From: Patescibacteria group bacterium
Lineage (GTDB): Bacteria; Patescibacteriota; Microgenomatia; UBA1400; PJMF01
Reading direction: 5' to 3'
Assembly (NCBI GenBank): GCA_016861085.1
Contig: BOKR01000001.1
Location: forward strand, 1,098,040-1,162,039
Length of the DNA: 64,000 bases
Below the pieces are notes generated by a model that was given only the letters and a program-made list of their open reading frames with translations, was not told the origin of the DNA and made no database searches. A program made the position numbers and the translations under genes. Shown here one piece after another: positions 1 through 43,129 of the stretch (positions are counted from its first letter, which is position 1; every line of letters begins with the position of its first letter).

Positions 1-619
1 CATGCGATAAAGCAATAGTGACCATATTCATCCCCATTGCTTCATCGGTATCAAAAACAAAACGAATATACAGCAATTTATCTCGCATAAAAATCTCATG
101 AGAAAGAAATTGTAAATGGCTACTGGTTTCCTCACAAAACTTTGCAAAAACAGCATAATTTTGTGAAAAGTATTTTGAAAATGTAATGGCGTCTTCAATA
201 GATTGGCACTCAAACACAACAGATCTACTCATTCCAACTTTTTGCACAATGACTGTTGTTTTCCCTAAATCAAGAATTTTTAGACCTCTGTGAATTGAAG
301 CAACCAAAGCACCTTCTGTTGTAGCTAATGGGATAAGAAAAGTTTGGCTCTTTTTTTCAAGAATTGCCCCCTCATGGCTAACATAAGCAACTTTTGCAGT
401 GACTGGACCTGCAACTCCAACTGGTATTTCCACTGATCCAACAAGGTTTTCACAGTTTTTTTGCCCAGCTATATCAACAGGTAAACCAATCACAAAAAAA
501 TCTTCAAGCTCTTCTTTTTTTGTACTTGTCACAGAACACAGTAACTCCTGCCGAATTGCTACTTTTTGCTTTTCAGACGCGTCAATATCACGAATAAAAA
601 AAGATTTTTTCTGAGTCAC
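1..619 (-). CDS. HMG-CoA reductase (class I catalytic domain), partial; 3' end runs off the window start; provisional GTG start at 619
   Basis: Minus-strand translation gives CENLVGSVEIPVGVAGP, ATTEGALVAS and DAMGMNMV, the class I HMGR motifs. It is absent from the ORF track because the window holds no stop codon. An in-frame stop lies just upstream of the GTG. Confidence 0.75.
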   Translation of the reverse strand, partial: MTQKKSFFIRDIDASEKQKVAIRQELLCSVTSTKKEELEDFFVIGLPVDIAGQKNCENLVGSVEIPVGVAGPVTAKVAYVSHEGAILEKKSQTFLIPLATTEGALVASIHRGLKILDLGKTTVIVQKVGMSRSVVFECQSIEDAITFSKYFSQNYAVFAKFCEETSSHLQFLSHEIFMRDKLLYIRFVFDTDEAMGMNMVTIALSH

Positions 620-657
620 AACACATTAGTCGCAAAACAGAACAACTTTCATGCAGA

Positions 658-1332
658 TTATTTGTTTTTTTTGAGAATTTGCTTATACGCATCAAACAAT
701 ATTGGGTTTTTAAGCATAAAAATGGTCCACGGACTTATTTGAAATTCTTTTTCGCCAATTGTTACTAAAGCTGTTGGTGTCTTTTCCTGCAGCTCACCAC
801 CCTCTATCAGTAGTGAGTTTTCTGGAGAAATATACTCTAAAACTGAAATTTGGGCGAAAAGCTTTTCAAACTCTACCCATTGGTATTCACTGACTTCTTC
901 AGGATTTGGTTGTACCACACCTTCATATAAGCCGATATACACTTGGTCTAACTCATGTTCGCCATATTCCGCATTTCCATACGCTTTGTACCCAAATTTA
1001 TATACTGGGATTAGTTGAACACCGTTTACTATGCCCAACTCAACCTTAAGTCTTCTTACTGCGCAATCAAAATATGTTTCTGTTGGCCAAACGTTTCCAC
1101 ATACGCTGTTAGCCCACCAATCGGCACCAACAATTTTCTTTTTACTTCTCTTTTGAAGTAGAGTCTGTCCTTTAGAATTAAACAACCACACTGAGATTGC
1201 TAAATGCATCTGAGACGGGTATTTATGCGCAATGTATTTATCTGCTCGCCCCACAACTGTGCCATCAAAACTACATAAAGAAACCTCGTCTTTATCTATC
1301 AGTAATTGTCGTATAGTTTTGTTGTCATCCAT
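658..1332 (-). CDS. idi: Isopentenyl-diphosphate delta-isomerase type 1 (Nudix fold) with a C-terminal extension
   Basis: HLAISVWLFN...WWANSVCGNVWP...AVRRLKVELGI...EEVSEYQWV match the IDI-1 motifs (HRAFSVFLFN / WTNTCCSHP / Nudix box). It lies directly upstream of HMGR on the same strand. Confidence 0.65.
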   Translation of the reverse strand: MDDNKTIRQLLIDKDEVSLCSFDGTVVGRADKYIAHKYPSQMHLAISVWLFNSKGQTLLQKRSKKKIVGADWWANSVCGNVWPTETYFDCAVRRLKVELGIVNGVQLIPVYKFGYKAYGNAEYGEHELDQVYIGLYEGVVQPNPEEVSEYQWVEFEKLFAQISVLEYISPENSLLIEGGELQEKTPTALVTIGEKEFQISPWTIFMLKNPILFDAYKQILKKNK

Positions 1333-1337
1333 ATCAC

Positions 1338-1676
1338 TTATCTTCTAAATACTAGAGTGAATCTAATTAATAAATACAATAATAACACCTGCCAGTAAAT
1401 ACAAAAGAACGTCACCATATTTGAAAAAAATGAAATCCAACTGCAGGCAAAAAAGCCAGTTTGGGCGCAACTAAATACAATCTGCACTGTCGGCACGAAA
1501 ACAAGTTTCCAAAAAATTGTCAAGAAACTAAGAAACAAACTAGGAAGTAATGCCATCCAAATAAAAATGTTCTGCCTCACTAAAGATTGCATTGTTTGGT
1601 ATGGGTGTAGTAACAAGCCTGTCGTTATTTGACCAAGTGAATAAATGAATGAAAATAGTATCCGTCTGAACTTCAT
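1338..1676 (-). CDS. small polytopic membrane protein, function unknown
   Basis: 112 aa, almost entirely hydrophobic helices. Tightly packed between the anti-sigma candidate and idi. Confidence 0.4.
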   Translation of the reverse strand: MKFRRILFSFIYSLGQITTGLLLHPYQTMQSLVRQNIFIWMALLPSLFLSFLTIFWKLVFVPTVQIVFSCAQTGFFACSWISFFSNMVTFFCIYWQVLLLYLLIRFTLVFRR

Positions 1677-1876
1677 ACTCTTTTTACCAGTTCGACAATA
1701 ATTGCTGAGAGTACAGATAAAACACTCAAGACAACAAATGTATGTTCGCCAATAAATGAGGTAAGTGGGTCGAACGGCTGAGGAATAATTCTTGAGCTAT
1801 ACAATTTTTGCTGCTGTTTAGCTTCGTTTTGTAATTGTTTCAAAAAATCATTAGTCATACTCAAACCATTACCCAC
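1673..1876 (-). CDS. small single-pass membrane protein, candidate anti-sigma factor
   Basis: 67 aa with a C-terminal TM helix. Overlaps the 3' end of the ECF sigma gene by 16 nt (translational coupling). Confidence 0.3.
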   Translation of the reverse strand: MGNGLSMTNDFLKQLQNEAKQQQKLYSSRIIPQPFDPLTSFIGEHTFVVLSVLSVLSAIIVELVKRV

Positions 1877-2385
1877 AATTCTTTAAATTCTTTTCTCGCT
1901 CGAAACAGATCTGATTCTACTGATTTAACACTTTTTTGTAATTCTATTGCTATATCGATCACTTTTTTATTATCAGCATACTTTAAGAGGAGAAGCTCGC
2001 TATAGTACTTTCTCATTTTCGATAAGACAACAGTGACCTTTTGCGAAACCTCATCACTATCAGAAATTTGATTTAATGGAAGCAACTCTGATAAAGGAAT
2101 TGTTTGCAAGGCTTTTTTAGCATACTTTTTTCTAAAATAATCTGCTACCTCATGACGAGCAATTGAATTCATCCACGTCCAAATACTAGATTTGCCTAAA
2201 AACAGAGGTAAATGCTTTAGACAGTTCAAAAAAGTCTGCTGAACAATCTCTTCAGCATCTTTTCTATTTGAAACTTTATACTCAATAACTCTCAGTAACC
2301 GAGCGGAATAGGTATTAAACCAGACTTTAACTGCGTGTTCACTACCAGTTTTTAATTCTTTAATAAGTTGTTGTTCATCTAGCAT
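1861..2385 (-). CDS. RNA polymerase sigma-70 family, ECF subfamily sigma factor
   Basis: Region 2 (AEEIVQQTFLNCLKHL...WTWMNSIARHEVADYFRKK) and a region 4 HTH (YSELLLLKYADNKKVIDIAIELQKSVKSVESDLFRARKEFKE). Confidence 0.8.
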   Translation of the reverse strand: MLDEQQLIKELKTGSEHAVKVWFNTYSARLLRVIEYKVSNRKDAEEIVQQTFLNCLKHLPLFLGKSSIWTWMNSIARHEVADYFRKKYAKKALQTIPLSELLPLNQISDSDEVSQKVTVVLSKMRKYYSELLLLKYADNKKVIDIAIELQKSVKSVESDLFRARKEFKELWVMV

Positions 2386-2474
2386 TCCTCACTATTGTAC
2401 AACAAATTATTGGTTCCCAGGGAAACTTACATACTTTTCATCAAGTATCGCCTACTATATAATAGTACTACCTT

Positions 2475-2855
2475 ATGTTTTTTGGATTAGTACCAACCGC
2501 TTATGCTCAGGCTGAAGTTAATGAAAGTCCCTGTGGCGCCGGCACTGGAGGTATTGATCTCGGAAACTGTCTGCGACTCTCAGATAGCACTAAAGTCAGC
2601 GACGTATATGATACTCCCGCGTTCTTAGTCAATTTATTCGTAAGCAATATTTTTGTTATTGCAGGTATTGTCTTCTTTCTTATTGTCATTGTTGCAGGAT
2701 TTAAATTTATTATGGGCGGACAAAAAGGCGCTGAAGACGCAAAAGGTATCTTCCAGGCAGCATTAACTGGTTTTATCATCATGTTTGCAGCATATTGGAT
2801 TATTCAAATTGTCGCCTTGTTGACCGGCATACAAATACCTGGAGTAAGCGAATAA
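2475..2855 (+). CDS. TrbC/VirB2-like T4SS pilin paralog P1 (short 12-aa leader ending YAQ, then 2 TM helices)
   Basis: Architecture is leader-AQ / TM1 / short loop / TM2. It is paralogous to seven downstream genes. An in-frame TAG lies immediately upstream of the ATG, so the short leader is real. Confidence 0.5.
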   Translation: MFFGLVPTAYAQAEVNESPCGAGTGGIDLGNCLRLSDSTKVSDVYDTPAFLVNLFVSNIFVIAGIVFFLIVIVAGFKFIMGGQKGAEDAKGIFQAALTGFIIMFAAYWIIQIVALLTGIQIPGVSE

Positions 2856-2856
2856 T

Positions 2857-3240
2857 ATGTCACTCTTTTCTTTCCCTAAAGTCTATGCTCAAACACCAGA
2901 AGAATTGGTTGGAGACATTGCAATCCCAAAGGGTGTTGACCTCATTAATCAAGACGCAGGTGGCATTGGGGTTGTTTTATTCATCTCTAATATGATCCGA
3001 CTTATTATTATTCTAGGAGGAGTGTGGGCACTTTTGAATATTATTCTTGCTGCATTTGCGTACCTTACTGGGGGCGGAAAACCAGACACACATAGTAAAG
3101 TCAGTAGTCGGTTCACCATGAGTGTTATTGGCTTGTTATTAATGATTGTTTCATACAGTATTGCAGCACTCATCGGTTTACTATTCTACGGAGAAGCATC
3201 ATATATCCTTACACCAACAATAACACCAATTGGTGGATAA
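2857..3240 (+). CDS. TrbC/VirB2-like pilin paralog P2 (short leader MSLFSFPKVYAQ)
   Basis: Loop motif FAYLTGGGKPDTHSKVSSRF between two TM helices. C-terminal tail ILTPTITPIGG. Starts 1 nt after the P1 stop. Confidence 0.5.
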   Translation: MSLFSFPKVYAQTPEELVGDIAIPKGVDLINQDAGGIGVVLFISNMIRLIIILGGVWALLNIILAAFAYLTGGGKPDTHSKVSSRFTMSVIGLLLMIVSYSIAALIGLLFYGEASYILTPTITPIGG

Positions 3241-3245
3241 CAGAT

Positions 3246-3827
3246 ATGAAAGTATTTTTAATAAAAGCAATCAGACAGATCATCTTAAGTATTTTTACTG
3301 TGTTAATTTTTGCAGGTGTACTATTTTCCCCTCAGCTTTCTATTACAAAACAAACTTTTGCAGCAGACGGGTGTGCATATGCAGGACACTGCATAAATAA
3401 CAAAAAATGTGTTTGCCCTATCCCTGGTTATTATGACTGCAGATATAGTCCCCAAGCTTTGGTTTTAGGTGAAGAGCCTTGCGGTTCTGCAATTATTGGT
3501 GGTGTTGAACCTCCAGCTGCAGTTGGAGCTATCAATGCTGCATCAGGTGGTGACATTGGTTTGATTTTTTTCATTTCTCGAGCAATTGGTTTTGCTAATA
3601 TTGTTGCAGGAATTCTAGTAATGATTAACTTTGTTGTCGCAGGATTTTTGTATGTGACTGGGGCCGGTAACCCTAGCAATATGGCTAAGATTAATGAACG
3701 GATGCTCTGGAGTTTTGTTGGTATATTAATAATAGTTGGTTCTTATTCTCTGGCTGCCTTGTTTGGCTTAATATTTTATGGAGATCCGACTTTTATCATT
3801 ACTCCAACATTAACAGGAGCAGTTTAA
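3246..3827 (+). CDS. TrbC/VirB2-like pilin paralog P3 with a Cys-rich N-terminal insert
   Basis: Full signal/TM leader, a Cys-rich ~50-aa insert, then a conserved 2-TM core (FLYVTGAGNPSNMAKINERMLWSF) and the tail IITPTLTGAV. Confidence 0.5.
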   Translation: MKVFLIKAIRQIILSIFTVLIFAGVLFSPQLSITKQTFAADGCAYAGHCINNKKCVCPIPGYYDCRYSPQALVLGEEPCGSAIIGGVEPPAAVGAINAASGGDIGLIFFISRAIGFANIVAGILVMINFVVAGFLYVTGAGNPSNMAKINERMLWSFVGILIIVGSYSLAALFGLIFYGDPTFIITPTLTGAV

Positions 3828-3863
3828 TAAATACTTGGTATAATAAAGAAAAGAAAAGTCAGT

Positions 3864-4235
3864 ATGTTACTACCAACACTCATTGCACAACAATTTGGAA
3901 GTTTTAAACCAACCTCACCTCTCGTCGAGGGCGCTGAAGAAAATCCGGGAGCAAACTTAGAAGCAATTATTTCAAATGTACTTGGGGTTTTAACAATTGT
4001 TGGTGGAATTTTCTTCATTATTTATTTTATGGTGGCATCCTTTGAGTGGATTACAGCTGGCGGTGATGCTGGAAAACTTACTACTGCGCGAAATAAAATG
4101 ATGCAAGGAGTTTTAGGACTCATTGTATTGGTCGCAGCGTATGGAATTATTGGTCTTATTGGTAGCTTAGTTGGAATAGAGTTACTTAAACCAGCTGAAC
4201 TGCTTGAAAGTGTCACACCTGGTACGGGAACCTAA
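3864..4235 (+). CDS. TrbC/VirB2-like pilin paralog P4 (short leader MLLPTLIAQ)
   Basis: Core motif FEWITAGGDAGKLTTARNKMMQGVLGLIVL is shared with P5-P8. Confidence 0.5.
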   Translation: MLLPTLIAQQFGSFKPTSPLVEGAEENPGANLEAIISNVLGVLTIVGGIFFIIYFMVASFEWITAGGDAGKLTTARNKMMQGVLGLIVLVAAYGIIGLIGSLVGIELLKPAELLESVTPGTGT

Positions 4236-4237
4236 TT

Positions 4238-4660
4238 ATGAAATACCTTTCAAAAAAAATTACTACAGTTTTAACAGCACTTGGATTATTTTTATCAAAA
4301 ATTGTTTTCGTTCATGCCCAAATCAAAAATCCTGTAACAGGAGAACTAGGTGCAGATGCAGAAGAAGCTGCTTCAGGAGAAATTTTTGTGAGTTATTTTG
4401 TTACTTTATGGAATGCCTTCATTACCATTGGCGCAATAGCTGTTTTAATCATGTTCCTCTGGGGGGCACTTGAATGGATTACCGCCGGTGGTGAAGCCAG
4501 TAAAATTGAGAAAGCTCGTAATAGAATTATGCAGTCTTTCTTAGGTTTGCTCATTTTAGTTAGCTCATTTGTAATTATTGGTTTTGTCAGTCAATTATTC
4601 TTTGGTGAGGAATTTTCTATCCTTAACTTAACATTTACACAGGTTGGAGGTGAAGAATGA
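4238..4660 (+). CDS. TrbC/VirB2-like pilin paralog P5 (full signal peptide ...VHAQ)
   Basis: LEWITAGGEASKIEKARNRIMQSFLGLLIL core. Starts 2 nt after the P4 stop. Confidence 0.55.
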   Translation: MKYLSKKITTVLTALGLFLSKIVFVHAQIKNPVTGELGADAEEAASGEIFVSYFVTLWNAFITIGAIAVLIMFLWGALEWITAGGEASKIEKARNRIMQSFLGLLILVSSFVIIGFVSQLFFGEEFSILNLTFTQVGGEE

Positions 4661-5178
4661 AACAACTTTTTTTGACATTTTTACTTTTGCTTTCAATTGA
4701 AGTTGGTGTAGTAACACAAAAAGTACAACTCACTTCCACTGTTTATGCTCAAGAGCCAATTGAGCTCAACTTTGGAGATGTTGCCGATGAACGGGAGATT
4801 ATTGGTACAGATCTATACGAACCAGATGATGGTGAAGCTGGTTTTGGTGCGTTAATTGGTCGAATATTAACAATAGTAGTCACAATTGCTTCTATTATGG
4901 TGTTAATCATGTTCCTCTGGGGTGGTCTAGAATGGATTACTGCTGGTGGAGATAAAAGTAAAATTGAAAAAGCTCGTAATAGAATTACACAATCCTTTAT
5001 TGGAATGATTGTATTAGCTGCCATGCTTGCTTTGTTTATGCTTTTACAACTTTTCCTTGACTTTGAAGTATTTACCTTTGGTGGAGGTTCTTCTAACACA
5101 TCCACACCTCCAAGTGTTCCTGGAAATCCTAGCCAACCTGGCTGGCCTGGAGCTCCTGGAGGAAACATACCTTTATAG
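4657..5178 (+). CDS. TrbC/VirB2-like pilin paralog P6 with a C-terminal Pro/Gly-rich tail
   Basis: LEWITAGGDKSKIEKARNRITQSF core. ATGA overlap with P5. Tail is PPSVPGNPSQPGWPGAPGGNIPL. Confidence 0.55.
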   Translation: MKQLFLTFLLLLSIEVGVVTQKVQLTSTVYAQEPIELNFGDVADEREIIGTDLYEPDDGEAGFGALIGRILTIVVTIASIMVLIMFLWGGLEWITAGGDKSKIEKARNRITQSFIGMIVLAAMLALFMLLQLFLDFEVFTFGGGSSNTSTPPSVPGNPSQPGWPGAPGGNIPL

Positions 5179-5190
5179 TAAAAAGTAAAC

Positions 5191-5220
5191 TTGACGTTCT
5201 GTCTCAAGCACAGGTATAAT
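5191..5220 (+). promoter_or_regulatory. sigma70-like promoter (TTGACG-N18-TATAAT) for pilin paralog P7
   Basis: TTGACG at 5191-5196 and TATAAT at 5215-5220. The RBS AAAAGGA precedes the ATG at 5269. Confidence 0.55.
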
Positions 5221-5268
5221 TAGTAATAAGTAGTCAGTAATTAGCTGAAAAATAAAAAAGGAACACAT

Positions 5269-5637
5269 ATGAGAAACAAACTCAACGGTTTAGCTCTAAC
5301 AGCAGCCGCATTTGTAACATCAGCTCCAGCAGTATTTGCACAAATTCAAGTTGAAGAACCAGATTCATTCTTCTTTTCTGATATTGGTACACTGATTAAT
5401 AAAGCACTTAACTTTGTTATGGTACTTGGTGCTCTTTTGGTCTTCATGTACCTCATCTGGGGTGGAATTGAATGGATTACTTCTGGTGGTGACAAGGGTA
5501 AGACTGAGAGTGCTAGAAACAAGATTACCGCTGCAGTTCTTGGTTTGATCGTCCTTGCTGCATCTTGGGCAATTCTTGGCCTCGTCCTTAACTTCTTAGG
5601 CGCAGGTTCATTAAATGATGTCTTAGATAACATTTAA
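5269..5637 (+). CDS. TrbC/VirB2-like pilin paralog P7, monocistronic; candidate major expressed pilin
   Basis: Signal peptide ...VFAQ, core IEWITSGGDKGKTESARNKITAAVLGLIVL. It has its own promoter, a strong RBS and an intrinsic terminator. Confidence 0.6.
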   Translation: MRNKLNGLALTAAAFVTSAPAVFAQIQVEEPDSFFFSDIGTLINKALNFVMVLGALLVFMYLIWGGIEWITSGGDKGKTESARNKITAAVLGLIVLAASWAILGLVLNFLGAGSLNDVLDNI

Positions 5638-5658
5638 TACAGATTAGTTTTTTGAAAA

Positions 5659-5687
5659 GCCCCTCATTTATGTGAGGGGCTTTTTTA
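5659..5687 (+). terminator. Rho-independent terminator after P7
   Basis: GCCCCTCA-tttatg-TGAGGGGC followed by TTTTTT. Confidence 0.8.
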
Positions 5688-5752
5688 TTGATTTGTTAAA
5701 GGGGTGTGCTCCTTCGTCACTCCTAAAAAATCAATGTTATAATTAATTCATC

Positions 5753-6190
5753 ATGACTGGAAAAAACTATTTCTCTAAACTTGAAAAAATTTTTATTGCT
5801 GGTGTTGCTTACTTATATTCAACTTCAACAGCATTTGCTCAAACTACTGCCTGGTCTGGTGTGTGTGTAGGTGGAGTTGATAATGACGTTGCAACTATCC
5901 AAGGTCTTGAGTGTTTGATTGCAAATGTTTTCACCGTCATAATTACATTAATTGGTTTAGCAGCATTTGTGATGCTTATTGTAGGGTCTGTGCGCTGGTT
6001 AGTCTCTGGAGGTAATTCCTCTAATATAGATAAAGCCCGAAGCACTATGACCTATGCGGTGATTGGAATTGTTGTTGCACTTAGTGCATTTATTGTGCTC
6101 AATTTAATTGCTGGATTTACTGGTGTTGAAACAATCAAAACATTTACCATTCCTACTTCAGAAGATGTTGAACCACCTCCAAGTCCGTAA
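5753..6190 (+). CDS. TrbC/VirB2-like pilin paralog P8 (divergent)
   Basis: Signal ...TAFAQ, core VRWLVSGGNSSNIDKARSTMTYAVIGIVVAL, Pro-rich C-terminus. Confidence 0.5.
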   Translation: MTGKNYFSKLEKIFIAGVAYLYSTSTAFAQTTAWSGVCVGGVDNDVATIQGLECLIANVFTVIITLIGLAAFVMLIVGSVRWLVSGGNSSNIDKARSTMTYAVIGIVVALSAFIVLNLIAGFTGVETIKTFTIPTSEDVEPPPSP

Positions 6191-6244
6191 TTTTTGAATC
6201 AAAGTCAGCCTGTAAAATTATAGTTTGCAAGATATAATAGTGTT

Positions 6245-9200
6245 GTGCACAAAAAAGTACTGAGACTTCTGGTTCTACAGGTATTGTTTTTGTTGGTCTC
6301 ACTTGCAAAATTTGCAACACCAACCCATACTTTTGCGTCCGAGTTAATTGGTACTCACCTGGGTGAAGGTGATGTTGGGTATCAAGTCAACATCATCAAT
6401 ACAATCCTCATTCCTAATGGTTTAGAACCAGGAAGCCCAGTGACAGTCATGGTGCCTGTCACAATGCTACAGTCAAGCCAACAAGGATCAGTGCAACAAC
6501 TGGCAGCTGTTGTAGCTGGTGGTGGATTTTTTCCTATAGTTAGAATTAATGGAGTTTGTGAAGATTTTACTTCAGAAACAGGGCTAGATGCAGGGCAAGC
6601 AGTTGACCTTGCTCGAAATATTTTTGGTTCACAAGCATTGATTGTCTGGGGAAATGAAATTAATAATAAAGAAAACGAATGCCGCAATTGGTCAAAATAT
6701 GTAAGTGATTGGGCAAAAATTAGTGGGAAATCAAACGTCAGTCCAGCTGCTCTTGATTATTATATGGGACTGGATGCCTATAAAGTTTCTACTATGTTTG
6801 CCGAAACTCCTGGGATGGCAGCAATATTTAATACTGCACCAAGAGCTGCAAATGCGTACGGTTGTATTGGCCAAACAGCAGAAAGTTGCGAACCACTTGA
6901 AACAGTCACTCAACAAATTGGATATGAAGCTATTAATGGGACTCTCTTCCTTACAGAGTTTTCACTTTCTCCTGGAGGGAGTGCTCCAAATGCCCCAGAC
7001 ACCAATATTCAAAAAGTTTTAGAATTTATAGCGAGTAGAGCCGGTGAGACTCCCGCTGTAAAAGTCACCCCCCTTGTCAGGAATGTTTGTAACAATGAGA
7101 GTGACTGGTTACTTTACATTAATGGTAAATTATTTACTCCTCAAGGTACCGAAGTTTCTGAAAACTGCGAAGGAAGATCTGCAGACTCTAGTTATGATTT
7201 GAGCATTTATCCTGAGTATGATGTTGATGAAACCAAATTTTTCCTTTCCCCCATCAGAAACGTTATTGACTCAGGAAGCCTCCAGAGAACTACTGAAAAA
7301 TTAAGAAAAGAACTCGCACTACAAGGATATCAAGCATACTGTGCAACTGAGGGAGTTAAAATTGAACCTGAATATAACACTCAAGAAAAAATTAATCGGT
7401 ATTTTCTTCCAGAAAATTATAAAGGAGTTCAAATACTTGAGTTAGATGCAGTCGAAACCCTCAATATGACCAATGCTCAATACCCATTATGGAGAGATGT
7501 GAGTAACAAGCAATTTTTGCTTACCTCTCTTGAGGAATATTTTGGCTTTCGCGATGTGTACGTTTCCAACCCAGCCGATGCAGTACTAAACAGTTCCCCT
7601 ATCAACTCACTTCTTTCTGAGCCACAACTTTGTATGCAAGGGTGGAGAAATTTAGTAGCCCAAGAACTAGCTTGTGAGAGATTACAAAACCCTGGTGAAT
7701 GCGAACTTTTTACCAGACCAATCCCCAACTCGGCAATACCATACAATCCAGGTGTTGGCCCAGAGCTGTCACAGCAACAACAAAATATAGCTCCTCTTCC
7801 AACTGAAACGGAATTTACAGTCAAAACCTTACTTGATAAGTTAAAAGAATATGAGCCTGCATATAGAGATGGTACTGCAAAAGTTGGCTGTGAAGCCCTG
7901 ACGACAACTGATAGAGCCAGCAATGAGGCACTTTTACAAGGCCTTATGAACACCCCAACATATTTTGACAGAGCCTACAGATACGGATTTCTTGTTGCAG
8001 CAATCCATGCTAAAGATCCTGGCACAGATGAAGGTAATATTGCTACAAAACTATTTAATTTCTTCACCAAGAGAACTAGAACTCTTACTCCAGATGACGA
8101 AGTCTTGGTAGCCGCCTTTAAAATCCCAGATATTGGAACAAATAAAGGTGGTGGAGATGATACCGGTTCTCAATTTTGGTCTGATCCACTTGATTTAACT
8201 AGACAATTACTATTTAAAAACAAAGATAATAAAACCCATGAAGATGTAGATAGACCAAATAAGAGACAAACTATATTAGACCGAGCTGTTGGAGCAGCAA
8301 CACAAAATTCGGGAAGTAAAATTTATTGTGTGGATGGAAATAAAGCAACGGTCTCTTGTCAGAATGAGTTAACAAAAGCATTAACAGATATTATTAACGG
8401 AAATGTAGAAGGTTGTGGTGAGGCTGAAGCTGTAAACGTGATAAAAGACCTTGCTGGACTTGATAATCCTGCAGAGAAATATGGGAAAGCATTTAATAGC
8501 GATAATGGTCAACAAGTTATGCTTAACTTATTCTTTAAAGACCTTACTCACCCACCTCTTGGGGGCAATGGCCAAACAAATCCACAAATAGCAAAGACTG
8601 ATGATCCTGCGGAAAAATTACAATCATTATTTACTATTTCTGAAGATACCTGGCCTCCTGCAGTTGATTCAACTACTGTAGACTTTTATATTGTGTATCC
8701 AATGGGTTTCGAGCTTGATGCAGTTGAAAAAGCAATGAAGAGTGCGTTCTTTACCAAGGCTCAATTAGCCGCTTTAGAGACTGGGAATACTGTGGGAGGG
8801 TTTGAAATGACTGGACAAGCAATTGGTCTTGATGCTGGGTCTGTAGGTTTTAATTATGTTGACGAAATAAAGACGGCAAATGGAGAATGCGGTACTGAAG
8901 TAGCTACTTCAGGTGCTGTTACAAACAAACCTTGCGAAGAAGAGGTCACTATTGGGGTTAAACAGGAAAGTGCTGGAGTTGGAATACTTGGTGCTGAATT
9001 GGGATATTGGATGAGAAAAATTCAACTTCAACTCAACTCTCGCGCCTCAGAAGCATGGGCATACTTTGATTCGTGTAAAACAACAGAAGAATTTTTGCTA
9101 GGTCAATGTACTGGTGGAAATATAACTGGAAATGAAGGCGATGATGCACCACCAGTTACTGGTGATGCACTGGAGTCAGTTGCTCAATGTGATGGTGGAC

Positions 9201-9763
9201 CAAGAATCACTTCAGGAGAAACAGCAGAACACGTGGATACAACTGGAACCGGTGAATGTACTGGGAAACTCACCAGACTTTTTGTACCTGATGTTCATAA
9301 CATATCTGCCTGGAAAAATCCTGGTGATGCTGTCATCGATTGTGAAGACTTATACTCATATGCCGATTGTACATATCCCGAATCCCTCGTTCAAAATCCG
9401 GTTAATAGCCAAGGACAATTCGTAGAATCTGGAAATATAACGGCATGTGAGTTTGTAGTTAATGCGGCCAAAAGCGCTGGAGTTAGTCCAAGACTTGCTT
9501 TAGCAATGTGGGGTGAGGAGTCTGGCTTTAGCCATTATCGAGTCGCAGATTTTGGTGTGATTTCTAAACCAGCCCAAGATTTAGGTGCCCAAGTGAACTC
9601 ATTTATTAACATCTTGAAATCATATTCTTCATACATTGAATTTTTAGAAGCCTATTCTGGTGAAGAACGCGGATCTGGTGATCAGAGTCCAAATCAATTC
9701 TGTAACAATCCTAATTTTGTTGGAAGATTAAAGACATACTACGATTTTCTAGGTCCACAATAG
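6245..9763 (+). CDS. Large (1172 aa) Cys-containing secreted/anchored protein with a C-terminal peptidoglycan glycan-hydrolase-like domain (ESG motif of SLT/GH73 type); candidate PrgK/TraG(pIP501)/VirB1-like cell-wall hydrolase
   Basis: N-terminal signal/anchor LRLLVLQVLFLLVSLAKFA. C-terminus AAKSAGVSPRLALAMWGEESGFSHYRVADFGVISKP resembles the ESG(W/F)...FG motif of PG glycosidases. The ~1000 aa in between are unassigned. Confidence 0.4.
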   Translation: MHKKVLRLLVLQVLFLLVSLAKFATPTHTFASELIGTHLGEGDVGYQVNIINTILIPNGLEPGSPVTVMVPVTMLQSSQQGSVQQLAAVVAGGGFFPIVRINGVCEDFTSETGLDAGQAVDLARNIFGSQALIVWGNEINNKENECRNWSKYVSDWAKISGKSNVSPAALDYYMGLDAYKVSTMFAETPGMAAIFNTAPRAANAYGCIGQTAESCEPLETVTQQIGYEAINGTLFLTEFSLSPGGSAPNAPDTNIQKVLEFIASRAGETPAVKVTPLVRNVCNNESDWLLYINGKLFTPQGTEVSENCEGRSADSSYDLSIYPEYDVDETKFFLSPIRNVIDSGSLQRTTEKLRKELALQGYQAYCATEGVKIEPEYNTQEKINRYFLPENYKGVQILELDAVETLNMTNAQYPLWRDVSNKQFLLTSLEEYFGFRDVYVSNPADAVLNSSPINSLLSEPQLCMQGWRNLVAQELACERLQNPGECELFTRPIPNSAIPYNPGVGPELSQQQQNIAPLPTETEFTVKTLLDKLKEYEPAYRDGTAKVGCEALTTTDRASNEALLQGLMNTPTYFDRAYRYGFLVAAIHAKDPGTDEGNIATKLFNFFTKRTRTLTPDDEVLVAAFKIPDIGTNKGGGDDTGSQFWSDPLDLTRQLLFKNKDNKTHEDVDRPNKRQTILDRAVGAATQNSGSKIYCVDGNKATVSCQNELTKALTDIINGNVEGCGEAEAVNVIKDLAGLDNPAEKYGKAFNSDNGQQVMLNLFFKDLTHPPLGGNGQTNPQIAKTDDPAEKLQSLFTISEDTWPPAVDSTTVDFYIVYPMGFELDAVEKAMKSAFFTKAQLAALETGNTVGGFEMTGQAIGLDAGSVGFNYVDEIKTANGECGTEVATSGAVTNKPCEEEVTIGVKQESAGVGILGAELGYWMRKIQLQLNSRASEAWAYFDSCKTTEEFLLGQCTGGNITGNEGDDAPPVTGDALESVAQCDGGPRITSGETAEHVDTTGTGECTGKLTRLFVPDVHNISAWKNPGDAVIDCEDLYSYADCTYPESLVQNPVNSQGQFVESGNITACEFVVNAAKSAGVSPRLALAMWGEESGFSHYRVADFGVISKPAQDLGAQVNSFINILKSYSSYIEFLEAYSGEERGSGDQSPNQFCNNPNFVGRLKTYYDFLGPQ

Positions 9764-9794
9764 TGTGAAACTCATTCAAACTTTAGATAAAAAT

Positions 9795-10883
9795 TTAGGT
9801 CGAACTTGGTCCAAATCCTGAGGGATTATAGTTCAAGTCTCCTGGTTTAGGAGTATTTGTTTCCTTTTCAGGTGACTGCACGCCCTGTTGAATTTTAGAC
9901 TTATTTTTACTTCCTCTTGGTCTACCTCTTCCCCGTTTTGGTTCACTGGGAATACTCTTTTCTGACAGAATTTGAGGTTGTGGTGATACCGTTTCTTCTA
10001 CAACAAATACTTCGTCATCTTCATTTTGGCTTGATTGATTAAATACTTCTTGCTCAGTTTCATTTTCATTATTTGCAAGCTCATCACTTTGAGCTTCACG
10101 AGCAAATCTTCGTGCTCCGCTCCTGAGTAAGTAAGATACGACTTCAAACGTATCTGCGGTTGCTAAGTATGACTCTAAATTGTCTGTTTCTTCGTCGATA
10201 CCAGCAAGTAGATTAGTGGCAACTTCTTGATCTAGTTGATAGTTTAGTTCCCTTAAAAGTAACGCAACGTATTCACTGACACTCGAACTTCCCAAAATAT
10301 CTAATTTCAAATTTCCAAATGAGGTCTCGTATGAGTTAATACTGACTAAGGCTGTATTTTGGTACAAATTTTCGTACCCAATATACAGTTGATCAAGTGA
10401 TTCTAAATCATCAACTCCAACCAAAATCACCATGTCTGCTTCTGCACCAGTGTAAGAAAAGGTAACATTCTCTCTAGAAAGTGGATTTACACCTTTTTTT
10501 GGCTTAATCGTGAGATACAGTTTTTGAGTTGATTCATCTATTGCAGAGGTAATTTTTTCGACAGTTTCTGGTGTGTAGTCTAATGTTATACACAAGTTCT
10601 TGTTGCCGACCTCAGTTCTAGTTTCATCTAAATAGACGATATCAGGTTCTGCACTTGCTAAACTTTCACTAGATAACAAAGTAATTGACTTATTCCCTAA
10701 TTGTTGGAATGTTTTATATAGTGCGGTTGCAGCAAACAAATGATCACGTAAAGCATCTGGTGCATATATAATTAATACCGACTCTGCTTGAGCGAATAAT
10801 TCTTTAAAAAGGGATACTTTGTGCTGATCAATCATACTATCTTTATAGGTCATATTATATACTATATATGACAAAATATACAC
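9795..10883 (-). CDS. Degenerate DHH/DHHA1 (NrnA-like) family protein with an acidic linker and C-terminal AT-hook (KRGRGRPRGSKNK)
   Basis: IIYAPDALRDHLFAATAL aligns to the NrnA HxxPDGDAxGS region but lacks the catalytic residues. The GRGRPRG AT-hook sits near the C-terminus. Confidence 0.35.
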   Translation of the reverse strand: MYILSYIVYNMTYKDSMIDQHKVSLFKELFAQAESVLIIYAPDALRDHLFAATALYKTFQQLGNKSITLLSSESLASAEPDIVYLDETRTEVGNKNLCITLDYTPETVEKITSAIDESTQKLYLTIKPKKGVNPLSRENVTFSYTGAEADMVILVGVDDLESLDQLYIGYENLYQNTALVSINSYETSFGNLKLDILGSSSVSEYVALLLRELNYQLDQEVATNLLAGIDEETDNLESYLATADTFEVVSYLLRSGARRFAREAQSDELANNENETEQEVFNQSSQNEDDEVFVVEETVSPQPQILSEKSIPSEPKRGRGRPRGSKNKSKIQQGVQSPEKETNTPKPGDLNYNPSGFGPSST

Positions 10884-10995
10884 AGTTTAAAAGATATTTC
10901 AAGACTTACAATGCATTTCTTGCGATCAAAGTAGGTAAAGCGTATTTTACAAGTATATTCAGACTCACAAGTCTTTGTTATAATAGTATTCAAAT

Positions 10996-12633
10996 ATGGC
11001 AAAAAAAGCGCTTGCTATACTGCTGGTTCTCTTTTCATTCTTGGTAGTTACTACCAAAATTTCTTACGCACAAACACCAACACCTACTCCAATTCCTCTT
11101 TATGACGAACCATTCTCACCACAATCAGATGCTGGGCTCGTTAAAAGCTACAGAGCTGCAATTGATGATGACGGGTGTATGACACCCTCATTAGAATGTT
11201 TAGTACATCAAGTTTTTAGGTTTGTTTCATTAGAATTTGTAAACTCAACTTTATACACAGAATTCAAACCAAATATAGAAGAAGAAGCTCAAGGACCTGC
11301 TACAAATAAAAATATATTAGCAAGTGCTGGAACACTCATTGGTCATTTTTATGGATATCCTGTTGCGAATACTCAAACGTATGTTGCAGACCTCATGGAT
11401 TCAGCACATATTACTCCAAGAGCATATGCTCAAGGCCTAGGATTTGCATCTTTAAATCCTATTCTTGAACTTTGGAAAGCATTCAGAAATGTTGCGTACA
11501 TGTTCTTTGTTGTCATCTTTATTATTATTGGTTTTATGATCATGTTTAGACAAAGGATTGGTGGACAGGCAGCAATTACTGCTCAACAAGCAATTCCAAG
11601 TGTTATCGTAAGCTTACTTTTAGTCACGTTTTCTTATGCAATTGCCGGTTTTATGATAGACATGATGTATGTCCTCATGTTCCTCATCATAGGTATTTTT
11701 GGACAAACACTTCCTGATGGAAGTACAAATCTCATTGACATGACAATATTACAAGTAGCTGGAGCACTTTTTAGAGCTACAAATGTTTTGAGTCCAGGAG
11801 AAAATATAGATCTTGTTAGTAACTTATTTGGTAGTCTTCTTGAGGTACCTGCTCTCAATTCAGTCCTTGGAATTGTTGGAGGTCTTACCTTAACCGTAGT
11901 GCTTGCTGTTGCAATCTTGATCGGGACTGTAAGACTCTTTTTTGAATTGCTAAAATCATATGCAAGTATCGTTATTAGTGTTGTCACTTCGCCAATAGTC
12001 TTGATGATGGGAGCTATTCCTGGTAAAAATCCAATTGTCCCCTGGATAAAAGACTTAATCGGAAACCTATTGCCATTTCCTGTCGTTTTGTTAGTTTTAG
12101 TGCTTTTTTATCAATTTAAGGCTGTAGGAAGTGGTGCCGGTAATGAAGGTGGATTTATTCCACCGTTCCTTATTGCCCGAGGGCAAGCAAATGCTATTGC
12201 AAGTTTAATGGGACTAGCCCTAATTCTAGCTTTACCAGAAATTGTTAAAGACGCCAAGAAAGGTCTTGTTAAAGAAGGCTTTGGTTCAATGGTGTTTAAA
12301 GCAGCTGCTGAATCTGCAAAACAAGGTTGGAAAGGTGGCGAAATTATTCCAGGGGCTGCTTGGTCTGCACCTGGGAAGTATGGAGTTTCTGGCAGCTTAG
12401 TTCCAGCAGTTACAGTTGGTGCTCCATTGGGAGCAGCAGGTGGAGCTATTGGTAACGTATTTAGAAGAAGAGTCCTTAGACAACCTATTAAAGAAGGTGC
12501 TCTCGAATCTGCAGGAGTTGGTGCACTCAGAGGTACTTTAAGGACTGGTGGTGCTCTGGGTAATAAGGTTCTGAATAAAGAAGCTCCAAAGAAAATTAGA
12601 GAGTTTGCAACGAAAGTTAGAAAAGGAATATAA
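10996..12633 (+). CDS. Polytopic membrane protein with signal peptide; candidate VirB6/TrbL-like T4SS channel component
   Basis: Signal peptide ...KISYAQ and five or more hydrophobic helices spread over 545 aa. Lies between the T4SS hydrolase and the VirB4 block. Confidence 0.4.
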   Translation: MAKKALAILLVLFSFLVVTTKISYAQTPTPTPIPLYDEPFSPQSDAGLVKSYRAAIDDDGCMTPSLECLVHQVFRFVSLEFVNSTLYTEFKPNIEEEAQGPATNKNILASAGTLIGHFYGYPVANTQTYVADLMDSAHITPRAYAQGLGFASLNPILELWKAFRNVAYMFFVVIFIIIGFMIMFRQRIGGQAAITAQQAIPSVIVSLLLVTFSYAIAGFMIDMMYVLMFLIIGIFGQTLPDGSTNLIDMTILQVAGALFRATNVLSPGENIDLVSNLFGSLLEVPALNSVLGIVGGLTLTVVLAVAILIGTVRLFFELLKSYASIVISVVTSPIVLMMGAIPGKNPIVPWIKDLIGNLLPFPVVLLVLVLFYQFKAVGSGAGNEGGFIPPFLIARGQANAIASLMGLALILALPEIVKDAKKGLVKEGFGSMVFKAAAESAKQGWKGGEIIPGAAWSAPGKYGVSGSLVPAVTVGAPLGAAGGAIGNVFRRRVLRQPIKEGALESAGVGALRGTLRTGGALGNKVLNKEAPKKIREFATKVRKGI

Positions 12634-12689
12634 TTTTAACTCGCAAAATTATATTTTTTAGTAGCCTAAAAATTTGCAGAAACACTATA

Positions 12690-15326
12690 TTAGCTGCTCT
12701 TCGTGCTAGTGTCCTGTTCTTCCCATTTAATTGGTCCTGGGGGAATATCAGATTTTCCTTCTTTCTTTTCTTCGTGTCCTTCAATTTCACCCATAGTATG
12801 TTCTGTTTTTATGAGTAGTTTTCTCAAACTCATTGAAAGACCAGGCTCCATACCTCTTGTTGATTCCTCAACCTTTTGATGCTCTTTTTCATGATGTGAC
12901 GGGTTCATTGGTCGTAATAAATCACCATCACGATCTTGTGGCCTTTGATCAGATCTGGCTTCAGAAAGTAACCAAGTCATATATGCTTTTACTTGAGGTG
13001 GTATGCCACCTCCAGATTGACTTGAATCTTGATCTTGCACTTTCTTTAATGCAAGATTTCTGAATCTCTCAAATTCTGGATTACTCCTTGGTTCTAAATA
13101 TTTAAACATTTTAATTAAAAATAAAAGTGCAAGAACATTCATCATATTGTGATGTGCGCCATCGACAATCTTGGCTTTACCAAGTTCACTTAAGAAAACA
13201 TCGAGCTTCCTTAAGAGTGCTTCTCCATCAATTGGCTTAACAGGTTCTTTTATTATATCCAATGCTTTCATCCAGCCAGAACGAGCTGTTAAATACATAT
13301 TAAAGCCCTTTTCTCGTTTGTCTGATGAATCTCTAAAGTATTTTTTTGCGTATTCTTCAAATTGAGCATCATTAAAAATGATTTTTTGAGCTCTTGCTAA
13401 ATCACCCATCTCTGCAGTTACAATCCTACCGGCCTTTGGTACTGCGTCCTTCATCATTTGACCAACATAGAAATCATAAAGTGTCGGGAATGTAGAGCCT
13501 TTTGGTACAAATTCATAACCGTTCCCGTCTTCTCTTGGTCTAATCGGATGGCTCGCTTTCCCTACTGAGTAGTCTTTTTCCAATGCCTTTGCCAAACATC
13601 TGTGTACATCGCTTTCACTCAAAAAGCCTTCAAACCAAGACCTGATACGCTCAGTTTCTACCTCACCATCTTCGATACGTGCTTTAGCAGCACGCGCTTC
13701 TAAAGACTTTAATGCAGTTCTTAGCTCAGCGTGTTCTCTTTTTTGAACATCTGTTGCATCTTTTGGTAAAGAAGCAACTCTGTTATACAGGTCTAGTACT
13801 CTGGTAGGATTGGTAAGTATCTTTGACCTTTTGATTATTGATCGGATATCATCATTTTTTGCTACTACATCCCCAGTACTGTTAAAGAATGTATTATGAG
13901 CAGCCTTTTCATGCCATTCATTTGGCACATCAACAACGGCTAACAAATAGTGACTCGCCTTAGGCTCGCGGGCATACCTATTCATATCATAACCCACAGT
14001 TACCTGTGGGCTTGCCATCCATGAATAATCCTCTCCCCCGAACCCTTTTGTTACAGCTGCGGCTGTATCATCTAAGAAAAAATGTCCTCGAAGATCAAAC
14101 GCATTTGCCAGTCTAAAAGCATGTGTAGCAATATTATCTATTAAGTGTTTTTCTGCAGCATTCGTTCCCGAGTTTTTAGCCTTGGTAAGCCAACCATTAT
14201 CTTTAACTATTAACTCTATAGCTTCACGGAGATTGGATTCATTGCCATCCATATTCCTAGCTAAAAATTGTCCTGGTCTAACAATAACGGTGCCTTTTTT
14301 TAGCTTTCTACCGCTAGAATCTTCAAGTAATTCTACTGTTTTTCTATCTTTTTCTGGTTTTTTGTTTTCTTCTTCTTGTGCGACTCGCAAATCATCAACC
14401 GGACCGACATTAGTCAAATTATTTTTTAACGTATATCCCACACAATTTTCACCAGCGTCATACATATAGAGTTCGAGCAAAGCTAAAACCCTCATTGCTA
14501 GGTTCCCAAACCTTTTATTTCTCAAGATTTCATGAACGTGTGTTACATCAAACCCGCTTTGTTGAAAACTTTTTTCTAAATATGCTTTGTAATCAATGGT
14601 GAAGCCATTTCCTCCAGACCTAGGGTCAGCTTTATAGAGAACAGTCCAGGTAGTAAGTGCTGTTCTCCAATAACCCTCATACTGTTTAAATTCGGGATGT
14701 ACTTCGACAAGTCTGTTAAATTCACCTCTAACTCTAACATTATTTGCAAACTCAGCTTCGTCTGCAGGTTTAATTTCCGAAATTGCATAATTAATATAAT
14801 CCTCAGGGAGCCATCTATGTCTTTCTTGTGGTCTTTCTTCCCAAGCAGGCTTGACTTCACCAACAGCTGCTGTACCAGCATCGGCTTCTCTAGCAAACCT
14901 TGTTTCTCCTAGATCTCGCAAAGCTTTTTCTAATTTTTCTGAGGTGTTCTTAATTGGGCCAGTAACAAATTCATTATAGAACGTCACAGCTTCGTTATAA
15001 CTAATTCCTGATTTTTTTGAATCTTTAACAGCGAGATCAATTTTACCTAATATCGTTCTTCTATCTTTTATTTGATCACTATATCCACTGAAAACGTGAT
15101 AAAAAATTAGAAGGTTTTGTTTCATTGCCTCGGTGTTGAGTGTTCCAAGCGCAAGCATCTGGTTTGCTAATTCAGAATTTTTCCCAATTCTGATTATTAT
15201 CTCAATGAAAGGCTGCTTTAAATATTCTCCTTCAAATACTTTTAAAAAGTTGTCAACTTGCCAACCTAAATTAGTAACATCGTATCTGTTTAAAACTTGT
15301 TCTTCTTCTTGTCTTCTGCCTGGCAT
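12690..15326 (-). CDS. Large (878 aa) soluble protein of unknown function inside the T4SS locus
   Basis: Long ORF with no TM segment and no motif I recognise. Confidence 0.5.
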   Translation of the reverse strand: MPGRRQEEEQVLNRYDVTNLGWQVDNFLKVFEGEYLKQPFIEIIIRIGKNSELANQMLALGTLNTEAMKQNLLIFYHVFSGYSDQIKDRRTILGKIDLAVKDSKKSGISYNEAVTFYNEFVTGPIKNTSEKLEKALRDLGETRFAREADAGTAAVGEVKPAWEERPQERHRWLPEDYINYAISEIKPADEAEFANNVRVRGEFNRLVEVHPEFKQYEGYWRTALTTWTVLYKADPRSGGNGFTIDYKAYLEKSFQQSGFDVTHVHEILRNKRFGNLAMRVLALLELYMYDAGENCVGYTLKNNLTNVGPVDDLRVAQEEENKKPEKDRKTVELLEDSSGRKLKKGTVIVRPGQFLARNMDGNESNLREAIELIVKDNGWLTKAKNSGTNAAEKHLIDNIATHAFRLANAFDLRGHFFLDDTAAAVTKGFGGEDYSWMASPQVTVGYDMNRYAREPKASHYLLAVVDVPNEWHEKAAHNTFFNSTGDVVAKNDDIRSIIKRSKILTNPTRVLDLYNRVASLPKDATDVQKREHAELRTALKSLEARAAKARIEDGEVETERIRSWFEGFLSESDVHRCLAKALEKDYSVGKASHPIRPREDGNGYEFVPKGSTFPTLYDFYVGQMMKDAVPKAGRIVTAEMGDLARAQKIIFNDAQFEEYAKKYFRDSSDKREKGFNMYLTARSGWMKALDIIKEPVKPIDGEALLRKLDVFLSELGKAKIVDGAHHNMMNVLALLFLIKMFKYLEPRSNPEFERFRNLALKKVQDQDSSQSGGGIPPQVKAYMTWLLSEARSDQRPQDRDGDLLRPMNPSHHEKEHQKVEESTRGMEPGLSMSLRKLLIKTEHTMGEIEGHEEKKEGKSDIPPGPIKWEEQDTSTKSS

Positions 15327-16622: not shown

Positions 16623-16826
16623 CTAGTTATACAAAACTCTGTTCGCTTTTTCCATTGCACTTTTTTGATAATTTCTGATATAACTACAACAACCAAAATA
16701 ATTGTGGAATCTAGTGAAATTCTAGAACTGTGCCGCAACGGTAAATTTGGCTGATAATTCCAGATAAGTCCGGTCTTCAATCGTTTTGAGTATTGGGTAA
16801 CCAATACAAGTAATTACCAACGTGCA

Positions 16827-37904: not shown

Positions 37905-37929
37905 TTTTTTATTTGAAATAAATTAAAAA

Positions 37930-37956
37930 CCCCCGATTTTTATCGGGGGCTTTTTT
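37930..37956. terminator. Bidirectional Rho-independent terminator between rplY and the convergent minus-strand gene
   Basis: aaaaaCCCCCGATttttATCGGGGGcTTTTTT. Confidence 0.85.
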
Positions 37957-37977: not shown

Positions 37978-38397
37978 TTATTCAAAAATTGGATTGTTTG
38001 GATCGATTATTCTAGCTGTATTTTTATATTCTTCAGCTTTTTGTGTTTCACCTAGGGCAGCATAGAGTAGAGAAAGGTTTAATAAAATATCTCTGGAATG
38101 GGGCTGAATAGCAAGTACCTTCTCAAGAGAGTTGATCTCTAATGCGATTTGTTCTTTAGTCATTCTTTTAGCAACAAACAAATCGACATTTTTAGGAATA
38201 ACTGCAGAGGCAGAAACAACCTCGACGGGTTTTTGTGTAGTGTTTAAAAGCGAAATTCCACCAATAAACAAAACTAACCCAATAATAAAAAAGGCTAAAA
38301 TAGCGGGCTTTGTTTTATTAGAAAAATTGGCAGTTAATTTTAAAATAAAAACGAATAAATGAAGTGCAAGTCGTAGTTTAAACAGTAGAAATTTCAT
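37978..38397 (-). CDS. Membrane-anchored TPR-like repeat protein, function unknown
   Basis: N-terminal TM (AILAFFIIGLVLFIGGISLL) plus a helical-repeat C-terminus. Overlaps the valS 3' end by 20 nt. Confidence 0.4.
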   Translation of the reverse strand: MKFLLFKLRLALHLFVFILKLTANFSNKTKPAILAFFIIGLVLFIGGISLLNTTQKPVEVVSASAVIPKNVDLFVAKRMTKEQIALEINSLEKVLAIQPHSRDILLNLSLLYAALGETQKAEEYKNTARIIDPNNPIFE

Positions 38398-40687: not shown

Positions 40688-40753
40688 GGTTTCTTAATTA
40701 TAACATCTCGAGGTGGTTTTGGATGAGTTATTTTTGATTAAGACCTATAGTAC

Positions 40754-40781
40754 TTGACTTTAACAACCTATAAAATATAAT
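40754..40781 (+). promoter_or_regulatory. sigma70-like promoter A (TTGACT-N16-TATAAT) driving the long leader of membrane-protein paralog A
   Basis: ttgactttaacaacctataaaatataat. The same consensus promoter precedes cassette B. Confidence 0.55.
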
Positions 40782-40860
40782 ATGCTGGCAATAAAAATCC
40801 ATAGGAAATGGGAAACCGTTTTTTATTCTTTCTTATTGTATGGTAAAGAATTACTAAAAA

Positions 40861-43055: not shown

Positions 43056-43129
43056 GCGAATCACAAGAATTTTAACTGATTTATTAGAATTTTTCTGATT
43101 TGTAAATAATTTAAACCTCTTGTTATTAA

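Follow-up and report, generated by a model that had tools for sequence, protein, structure and literature searches.

A pilin gene with conserved expression signals of its own as the probable high-output member of an eight-gene VirB2-like array in a Patescibacteria T4SS locus

The stretch of DNA analysed here (64,000 nt in all, referred to below as the window) is chromosomal and belongs to Patescibacteria bacterium BroJett025, an organism on which no publication was found in the literature. It carries dnaA, dnaN, yidC, leuS, radA, rho, obg and the gene for ribosomal protein L25, together with an array of eight tandem, same-strand ORFs, P1 to P8 (2475-6190), the seventh of which, P7, is the subject of this report. 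All eight match the Pfam profile PF18895 (T4SS_pilin), with P4, P6, P7 and P8 scoring above its cutoff and P1, P2, P3 and P5 below. The array shares a locus next to dnaA with PrgI/VirB3-like, VirB4-like and VirD4-like genes, the first two at a distance of about 18-20 kb, and a TrsD-like gene is also encoded in the window (Table 1). The system is a monoderm-type T4SS of a Microgenomatia-like Patescibacterium. Divergent from P1 lies an ECF-type sigma factor gene (Sigma70_r2 plus r4_2), a neighbour of the array in 57 of the 80 related loci and a possible regulator of it.

Table 1. Positions of the pilin array, of P7 and its predicted signals, and of other elements in the window
Feature	Position	Strand	Details
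ECF-type sigma factor gene	1861-2385	-	Divergent from P1
Upstream unit P1-P2-P3	2458-3827	+	TATAAT 11 nt before P1 ATG (leaderless-like); intergenic gaps of 1 and 5 nt
P3	3246-3827	+	Cys-rich insert
Upstream unit P4-P5-P6	3839-5178	+	TGgTATAAT 19 nt before P4; 2-nt gap, then 4-nt overlap
P6	4657-5178	+	Stop codon 5176-5178; Pro/Gly-rich C-terminal tail
P7 -35 hexamer	5191-5196	+	TTGACG; starts 12 nt past the P6 stop codon
P7 -10 hexamer	5215-5220	+	TATAAT; 18-nt spacer to the -35 box
P7 5' UTR (predicted)	5227-5268	+	About 42 nt; A/U-rich, essentially unstructured
Hairpin in the P7 leader	5234-5248	+	TCAGT-N5-GCTGA, 5 bp; common only to closest relatives
P7 SD core	5258-5262	+	AAGGA, 6 nt 5' of ATG
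P7 CDS	5269-5637	+	122 aa; ATG 5269, TAA 5635-5637; PF18895 T4SS_pilin
P7 intrinsic terminator (predicted)	5654-5686	+	14-pair stem, full stem 5654-5685, GC core 5659-5680, 4-nt loop, T6 5681-5686, 5' A-tract
Downstream unit P8	5738-6190	+	Extended -10 TGtTATAAT 9 nt before ATG 5753; leaderless-like; directly after the P7 terminator
Next ORF after P8	6233 (TATAAT)	+	1172 aa; TATAAT 6 nt before GTG
AdoCbl (B12) riboswitch	16679-16837	+	Rfam RF01482, 51.4 bits
ORF after the riboswitch	16827-18965		712 aa; called TTG start
PrgI-family (PrgI/VirB3-like) gene	23934-25115		
VirB4-like gene	26354-28462		
Ribosomal protein L25 gene	37215-37904		Convergent with the TPR gene
Bidirectional terminator	37925-37954		Between the L25 and TPR genes
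TPR gene	37978-38397	-	
Duplicated promoter and leader, first copy	40752-40918		11/12 sigma-70 promoter
Paralogous protein, first copy	41242-42900		552 aa
Duplicated promoter and leader, second copy	43129-43327		11/12 sigma-70 promoter
Paralogous protein, second copy	44872-46509		545 aa
TrwB/VirD4-like coupling protein gene	53563-55746		
rho gene	56448-57785		

P7 is 100% identical to a BroJett025 protein. Among the eight paralogs, it obtains the highest score against PF18895 (45.6 bits, cutoff 26.6). Against PF04956 (TrbC/VirB2), P7 gave no match at E <= 0.01 and P4 a weak one under the cutoff (E = 0.0084); some P7 orthologs bear precomputed PF04956 matches. The best named match of P7 outside Patescibacteria is the NCBIfam family NF045849 (Mbov_0395 pilin-like conjugal transfer protein), which spans the entire helical hairpin (residues 37-109) at 37.1 bits, short of its cutoff of 40. 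A signal peptide is predicted at about residues 1-24 (...AVFA|Q), its AxA|Q site being conserved among orthologs, and the ortholog alignment displays two hydrophobic helices with the invariant loop EWITSGGDKGKTESARNK between them, the loop GGDKGKTESARNK being conserved as well. The AlphaFold model, for which 31 orthologs were used (pLDDT 81), comprises an N-terminal helix (residues 2-17) and two hairpin helices (39-71 and 76-109) at pLDDT of about 94-95, so that the modelled architecture, in which a signal helix precedes a pair of hydrophobic helices folded into a hairpin, would be of the VirB2/TraA type. A fold search with this model was unable to discriminate the conjugative-pilin fold, the best match being 8dfu at E = 1.8. 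The other paralogs are divergent, with 17-40% identity to P7.

By family membership, P7 would thus be a structural subunit of a pilus. Like the VirB2/TrbC/TraA pilins of diderms (T-pilin, F-pilin; PF04956), it is modelled as a small protein with a signal peptide, a hairpin of two hydrophobic helices and a short charged loop, is predicted to be Sec-dependent as they are, and is likewise associated with VirB3, VirB4 and VirD4 homologs; it differs from them in falling short of PF04956, in its monoderm host, in having eight paralogs, and in that its filament is a predicted one. The Mbov_0395 family, which P7 matches below cutoff, comes from monoderm MPF_FATA-type conjugation systems, and in mycoplasma ICEs its protein is known from a single gene and not from an array. 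The near-cutoff score against NF045849 suggests that monoderm MPF_FATA-type systems do have VirB2-like proteins, a point on which PMC12102498 states the opposite.

A preliminary description of this DNA had presented P7 as an insulated monocistronic unit, with a TTGACG-N18-TATAAT promoter, an AAAAGGA-N7-ATG translation start and a GC-stem/T6 terminator 22 nt past the stop codon. The promoter lies where it was described and is predicted to be of the sigma-70 class, its hexamers agreeing with the consensus at 11 of 12 positions; transcription would start about 7 nt past the -10 box. AAAAGGA indeed ends at 5262, at a distance from the ATG of 6 nt instead of the 7 claimed, and its SD core falls short in strength of the AAGGAG found in most orthologs. 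The distance given for the terminator is borne out when counted to the GC core, whose first base is the 22nd nucleotide after the stop codon, the full stem lying 16 nt from it. A GC-rich hairpin with a U-tract is found 3' of the stop codon, a predicted intrinsic terminator at the sequence level, and the folding energy of its region is -28.5 kcal/mol (z = -7.4 relative to shuffles). The insulation, on the other hand, holds for the 3' side alone: no terminator was found between the P4-P6 unit and P7, and read-through from P4-P6 into P7 is unblocked because the -35 box starts only 12 nt past the P6 stop codon. The possibility that the P7 terminator is a repeat or mobile element was ruled out by its single occurrence in the window.

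In a consensus scan of positions 1-13000, the P7 promoter was the top match (11/12) and the P7 hairpin the strongest (14 pairs). Across the whole window there are three promoter matches of 11/12 (5191, 40754 and 43131) and about four strong terminators (5654, 37930/37954, 43628 and 46594), the latter, apart from that of P7, being located 3' of the ribosomal protein L25 gene and of two genes likewise furnished with 11/12 promoters. By count, the P7 promoter does not exceed chance, since first-order Markov simulations of the window yielded 2.6 +/- 1.5 matches of at least 11/12 against the three observed, and the overall numbers of promoter-like and terminator-like sites in the window were also not above those in shuffles. 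Conservation was therefore used as the deciding evidence instead; what is beyond chance is the place of the promoter, in a 90-nt gap and on the right strand, together with its conservation in orthologous loci.

The leader itself contains one short hairpin, present in seven of the related loci (L001, L041, L006, L003, L005, L017 and L048) as TCAG...CTGA without covariation. A structured RNA such as a riboswitch or attenuator was considered for the leader and rejected, given that no Rfam family matched, the fold z was -0.69 and the ortholog leaders are mostly unstructured. No operator-like repeat accompanies P7, and the simplest reading is that of a plain high-efficiency leader.

The earlier assertion that none of the other paralogs has such signals could not be upheld, as -10 boxes precede P1, P4, P8 and the gene after P8, while P6 carries GGAGG and P2 carries GGAG. 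Among the paralogs, P7 alone brings together a -35 box close to consensus, an SD-bearing leader of roughly 42 nt and an intrinsic terminator. The array reads as five units, P1-P2-P3, P4-P5-P6, P7, P8 and the large ORF, in which the 4-nt overlap within P4-P5-P6 may be taken as a sign of translational coupling. Two of the paralogs have additions that P7 is without: P3 bears the Cys-rich insert CAYAGHCINNKKCVCPIPGYYDC after its signal peptide, and P6 a Pro/Gly-rich C-terminal tail, TSTPPSVPGNPSQPGWPGAPGG.

This arrangement is set in a window where 23 of the 46 occurrences of TATAAT fall in intergenic DNA, which makes up 9% of the sequence, and where 13 of 46 genes have a -10 box 4-15 nt before the start codon and are hence leaderless-like (examples lie at 2458, 5738, 6233, 10979, 18987, 40697 on the minus strand, and 58952). 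An SD core precedes only 9 of the 46 genes. The organism thus appears to make wide use of leaderless or very short-leader mRNAs, and SD-led genes being a minority in the window, the SD of P7 is a distinctive feature.

For the comparative analysis, a P7-ortholog profile was scanned against one genome per GTDB species, which returned 80 loci, mostly labelled Pacebacteria, Woesebacteria, Microgenomates or generic Patescibacteria, and their ORFs were assigned to the window genes by BLAST. The syntenic order runs NUDIX (minus strand), ECF sigma (minus strand), P1, P2, (P3), P4, P5, P6, P7, P8, the large ORF, a 362-aa ORF (minus strand) and a 545-aa multi-TM ORF, and the pilin classes are colinear in 79 of the 80 loci. 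The same order of paralogs across loci indicates that they are ancient, each kept as a one-to-one ortholog. Conserved synteny, together with ordinary GC3, also ruled out P7 as a recent insertion or horizontal cassette.

Under a rule that demanded a hairpin plus T-run with dG <= -10 kcal/mol within about 115 nt, a terminator follows 88% of 77 P7 orthologs and 0-8% of the other classes; a promoter of at least 10 of 12 positions within 130 nt upstream precedes 83% of the same 77 and 4-29% of the others; and an SD core was detected in 90% (84% with at least 5 nt, mostly AAGGAG) as against 0-29%. AAGGAG occurs in 55 of 78 P7 genes. With the window included, all three signals coincide at 54 of 78 P7 genes and at none of 543 other cluster genes. 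Among 65 ortholog promoters, the -10 box is TATAAT in 49, the spacer 18 nt in 46 and the -35 box TTGAC(T/G/A), the commonest form, in 48; the median distance from the end of the -10 box to the ATG is 45 nt, and the leaders fold mostly at 0 to -4 kcal/mol. The 69 ortholog terminators have 66 distinct sequences and 46 distinct stem cores; this turnover, with hairpin and U-tract kept, implies that the structure is under selection and not merely inherited.

Two further loci (L011 and L014) contain real hairpins whose short U-tracts were missed by the T-run rule. In a subclade of five (L016, L021, L027, L029 and L040) the terminator is absent, having been lost or never acquired, and P8 starts 13-30 nt after P7, which suggests that the two genes may form a bicistronic unit there. 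P1 and P8 show the leaderless-like pattern across loci: a -10 box within 40 nt is found at 70% of P1 orthologs (median 9 nt; SD in 3%) and at 70% of P8 orthologs (median 10 nt; SD in 11%), and across P1, P8, the large ORF and the 545-aa ORF such a box at 40 nt or less is found in 63-82% of loci (median 6.5-10 nt), with an SD almost never. As a separate observation, 36 of the 80 loci (for instance L004 8518-9108, L007 8491-9045 and L012 8451-9038) have an extra, longer P7-like paralog after the P7 terminator and ahead of P8, usually without a promoter, SD or terminator of its own; the window genome is without a copy.

Two sequence indicators of expression were examined alongside these signals. 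Codon usage, taken as the share of codons for Phe, Tyr, Ile (ATC/ATT) and Asn that end in C, reaches 0.478 in P7 orthologs versus 0.32-0.36 in every other pilin class at equal GC3, and the P7 value is the higher in 67 of 78 loci (Wilcoxon p = 2e-11). Within the window, P7 ranks third of 44 genes, behind two genes, GC3-rich paralogs of each other, also equipped with 11/12 promoters and strong terminators, on a measure whose link to expression is not calibrated for the BroJett025 genome, the ribosomal protein L25 gene having a C-ending fraction of only 0.17. P7 is likewise the most conserved paralog class, with a median identity to the window of 59% versus 41-54% for the rest, a figure that may be inflated since the loci were selected via similarity to P7; an all-vs-all comparison of 44 complete loci, by which this bias is reduced and not removed, gave 0.547 for P7 versus 0.417-0.486 for the other classes.

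The reading preferred here, to which a probability of roughly 0.75 may be assigned, is that, of the eight VirB2-like pilin paralogs that make up a fixed set in a monoderm-type T4SS, P7 is the one with high output, and probably the bulk building block of the pilus. Transcription of P7 would begin at a sigma-70 promoter of its own, close to consensus (TTGACG-18-TATAAT), and yield an mRNA of about 460 nt, composed of the coding region and a leader of about 42 nt, A-rich and unstructured, that carries the SD. This mRNA would end at the strong intrinsic terminator 16 nt past the stop codon, which would also halt read-through from P4-P6. The neighbouring paralogs would be produced from SD-poor units, in which leaderless or short-leader first genes (P1, P4 and P8) come first and tightly coupled genes follow. 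As a result, P7 would far outnumber the other seven in stoichiometry, the design expected for a major (shaft) subunit beside minor or accessory pilins. The sequences show the signals with their conservation and specificity to P7, the orthology of the paralogs, the codon bias and the family membership; transcript ends, relative abundance and filament assembly are here what we infer. The earlier proposal that P7 is the abundantly made subunit is supported indirectly along three independent lines: its specific conserved signals, its codon bias and its top rank in conservation.

An alternative function of the private promoter and terminator would be condition-specific regulation, on host contact for example, and not high output, in which case P7 need not be the most abundant pilin. 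A separate transcription unit does permit separate control, and the conserved neighbourhood of the ECF-type sigma gene (57 of 80 loci) hints that the locus may be regulated. This explanation is nevertheless unlikely, as the P7 promoter is close to the housekeeping consensus and is accompanied by neither an operator-like repeat nor a structured leader, and the strong SD, the P7-specific codon bias and the conservation all point to high output.

Patescibacteria are already known to carry VirB2-like arrays, of which Quinonero-Coronel et al. (2025; PMC12102498) described 441, of 2-11 genes each, in 383 assemblies, with the greatest abundance in Microgenomatia and Saccharimonadia. The P7 array resembles them in its PF18895/PF04956 profiles, its tandem divergent pilins and its place in a chromosomal monoderm-type T4SS near dnaA. 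By analogy with Bartonella and Anaplasma, these authors proposed that the arrays may serve antigenic or host-range variation, under which P7 would merely be the copy currently expressed, and the low identity of the other paralogs to P7 would suit such a repertoire. The colinear orthology reported above does not fit this proposal: the paralogs have one-to-one orthologs in the same order in 79 of 80 species-level genomes, identity within classes (42-55%) exceeds that between classes, and the other paralogs have intact ORFs and -10 boxes of their own. Higher identity within than between classes, along with the conserved order, speaks for ancient, individually retained functions and not for fast-turnover cassettes, and a variation repertoire is considered highly improbable. 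The orthologous positions and the set of signals peculiar to P7 instead favour a model with one major and several minor pilins.

In its furthest extension, the preferred reading of P7 as the high-output pilin would make the eight paralogs an ancient fixed kit, with P7 as the shaft and seven low-copy accessory pilins, for a heteromeric pilus or a cell-wall-spanning conduit, its stoichiometry hard-wired by the only SD-led, terminated unit in a genome that is otherwise largely leaderless or coupled. This extension is tentative and carries somewhat less than even odds. Type IV pili, with their major and minor pilins, would offer a likeness, the subunits here being of the VirB2 type instead.

That the hairpin serves mainly to insulate the P8 and large-ORF units, or to stabilise the mRNA 3' end, with the eight pilins made in similar amounts, is also very improbable. 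P8 and the 1172-aa ORF do start in leaderless-like fashion right after the terminator, where read-through could disturb leaderless initiation; yet the near-consensus -35 box, the long leader, the SD and the codon bias, all confined to P7, would be left unexplained. A fortuitous occurrence of consensus motifs around an ordinary gene, with which the window's motif counts agree, can be dismissed as refuted by the comparative data, because most of 77 other species keep the signals at this gene despite sequence turnover and the P7 hairpin departs from shuffles at z = -7.4.

The layout inferred for P7 has its closest regulatory counterparts outside the conjugative pilins. In papA, fimA and type IV pilA, the major pilin genes are over-expressed via their own promoter, terminator or stable transcript. 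The genes virB2 and traA are part of long operons and are not known to have a promoter and terminator to themselves. As an analogy, the gene for the major subunit, followed by a terminator or attenuator, would in P7 as in papA, fimA and pilA be expressed in excess over the minor subunits encoded alongside; the protein families and assembly machines are unrelated, and the likeness is one of regulatory architecture only. To our knowledge, a pilus has never been seen on any Patescibacteria T4SS. A pilus on a monoderm T4SS has been flagged in a review as a possibility and an open question (PMC12857230). Genetic tests have been made in one Patescibacterium, Southlakia epibionticum, which cannot grow epibiotically without its T4SS and pilin array (Wang et al. 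2023; PMC10633639), and in metatranscriptomes of Paceibacteria, a class other than that of the window organism, T4SS pilins ranked in the top five by expression among signal-peptide genes without a known function (PMC10936435).

As an object, P7 is of a known kind, a T4SS pilin gene of Patescibacteria under ordinary bacterial expression signals. Two aspects appear to be new relative to the literature searched, namely that the positions of the array are orthologous across species and that one of them, P7, is systematically provided with a private promoter, SD and terminator in SD-poor genomes. The words "promoter" and "terminator" are absent from PMC12102498, and in the portions consulted of PMC12102498, PMC10633639 and PMC12857230 transcription units are not described, no pilin is nominated as the major subunit, and one-to-one orthology of array positions across species is not mentioned.

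As the probable major subunit, with a layout kept across about 80 species, P7 offers a concrete target for proteomics, antibodies, cryo-ET and helical reconstruction, and heterologous expression. With their order conserved and their orthology one-to-one, the paralogs would recast the arrays as a multi-component structural kit and not an antigenic-variation repertoire, and the locus may illustrate how expression is tuned in this lineage, with low-copy parts leaderless or coupled and the high-copy part SD-led and followed by a terminator.

Several other elements of the window deserve mention. Between 40752 and 46624, an 11/12 sigma-70 promoter and a leader of about 100 nt are duplicated at 75-84% identity, each copy being upstream of one of two paralogous proteins (552 and 545 aa) in which a soluble N-terminal domain is connected by a Lys/Glu-rich linker to a multi-TM C-terminal domain; neither had a Pfam match. 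This region is GC-richer (0.45-0.48 vs 0.38; GC3 0.52), with a strong terminator near the end of each unit (43628 and 46594), and its 5' UTRs are apparently long, about 460 nt in the first copy, while ORFs of 118 and 233 aa intervene between the second copy and 44872. The AdoCbl riboswitch lies directly before a 712-aa ORF without a Pfam match and overlaps its called TTG start. Finally, the bidirectional terminator AAAAGCCCCCGAT...ATCGGGGGCTTTTTT, between the convergent L25 and TPR genes, is a further strong intrinsic terminator, of which the window has very few, although the genome encodes Rho.
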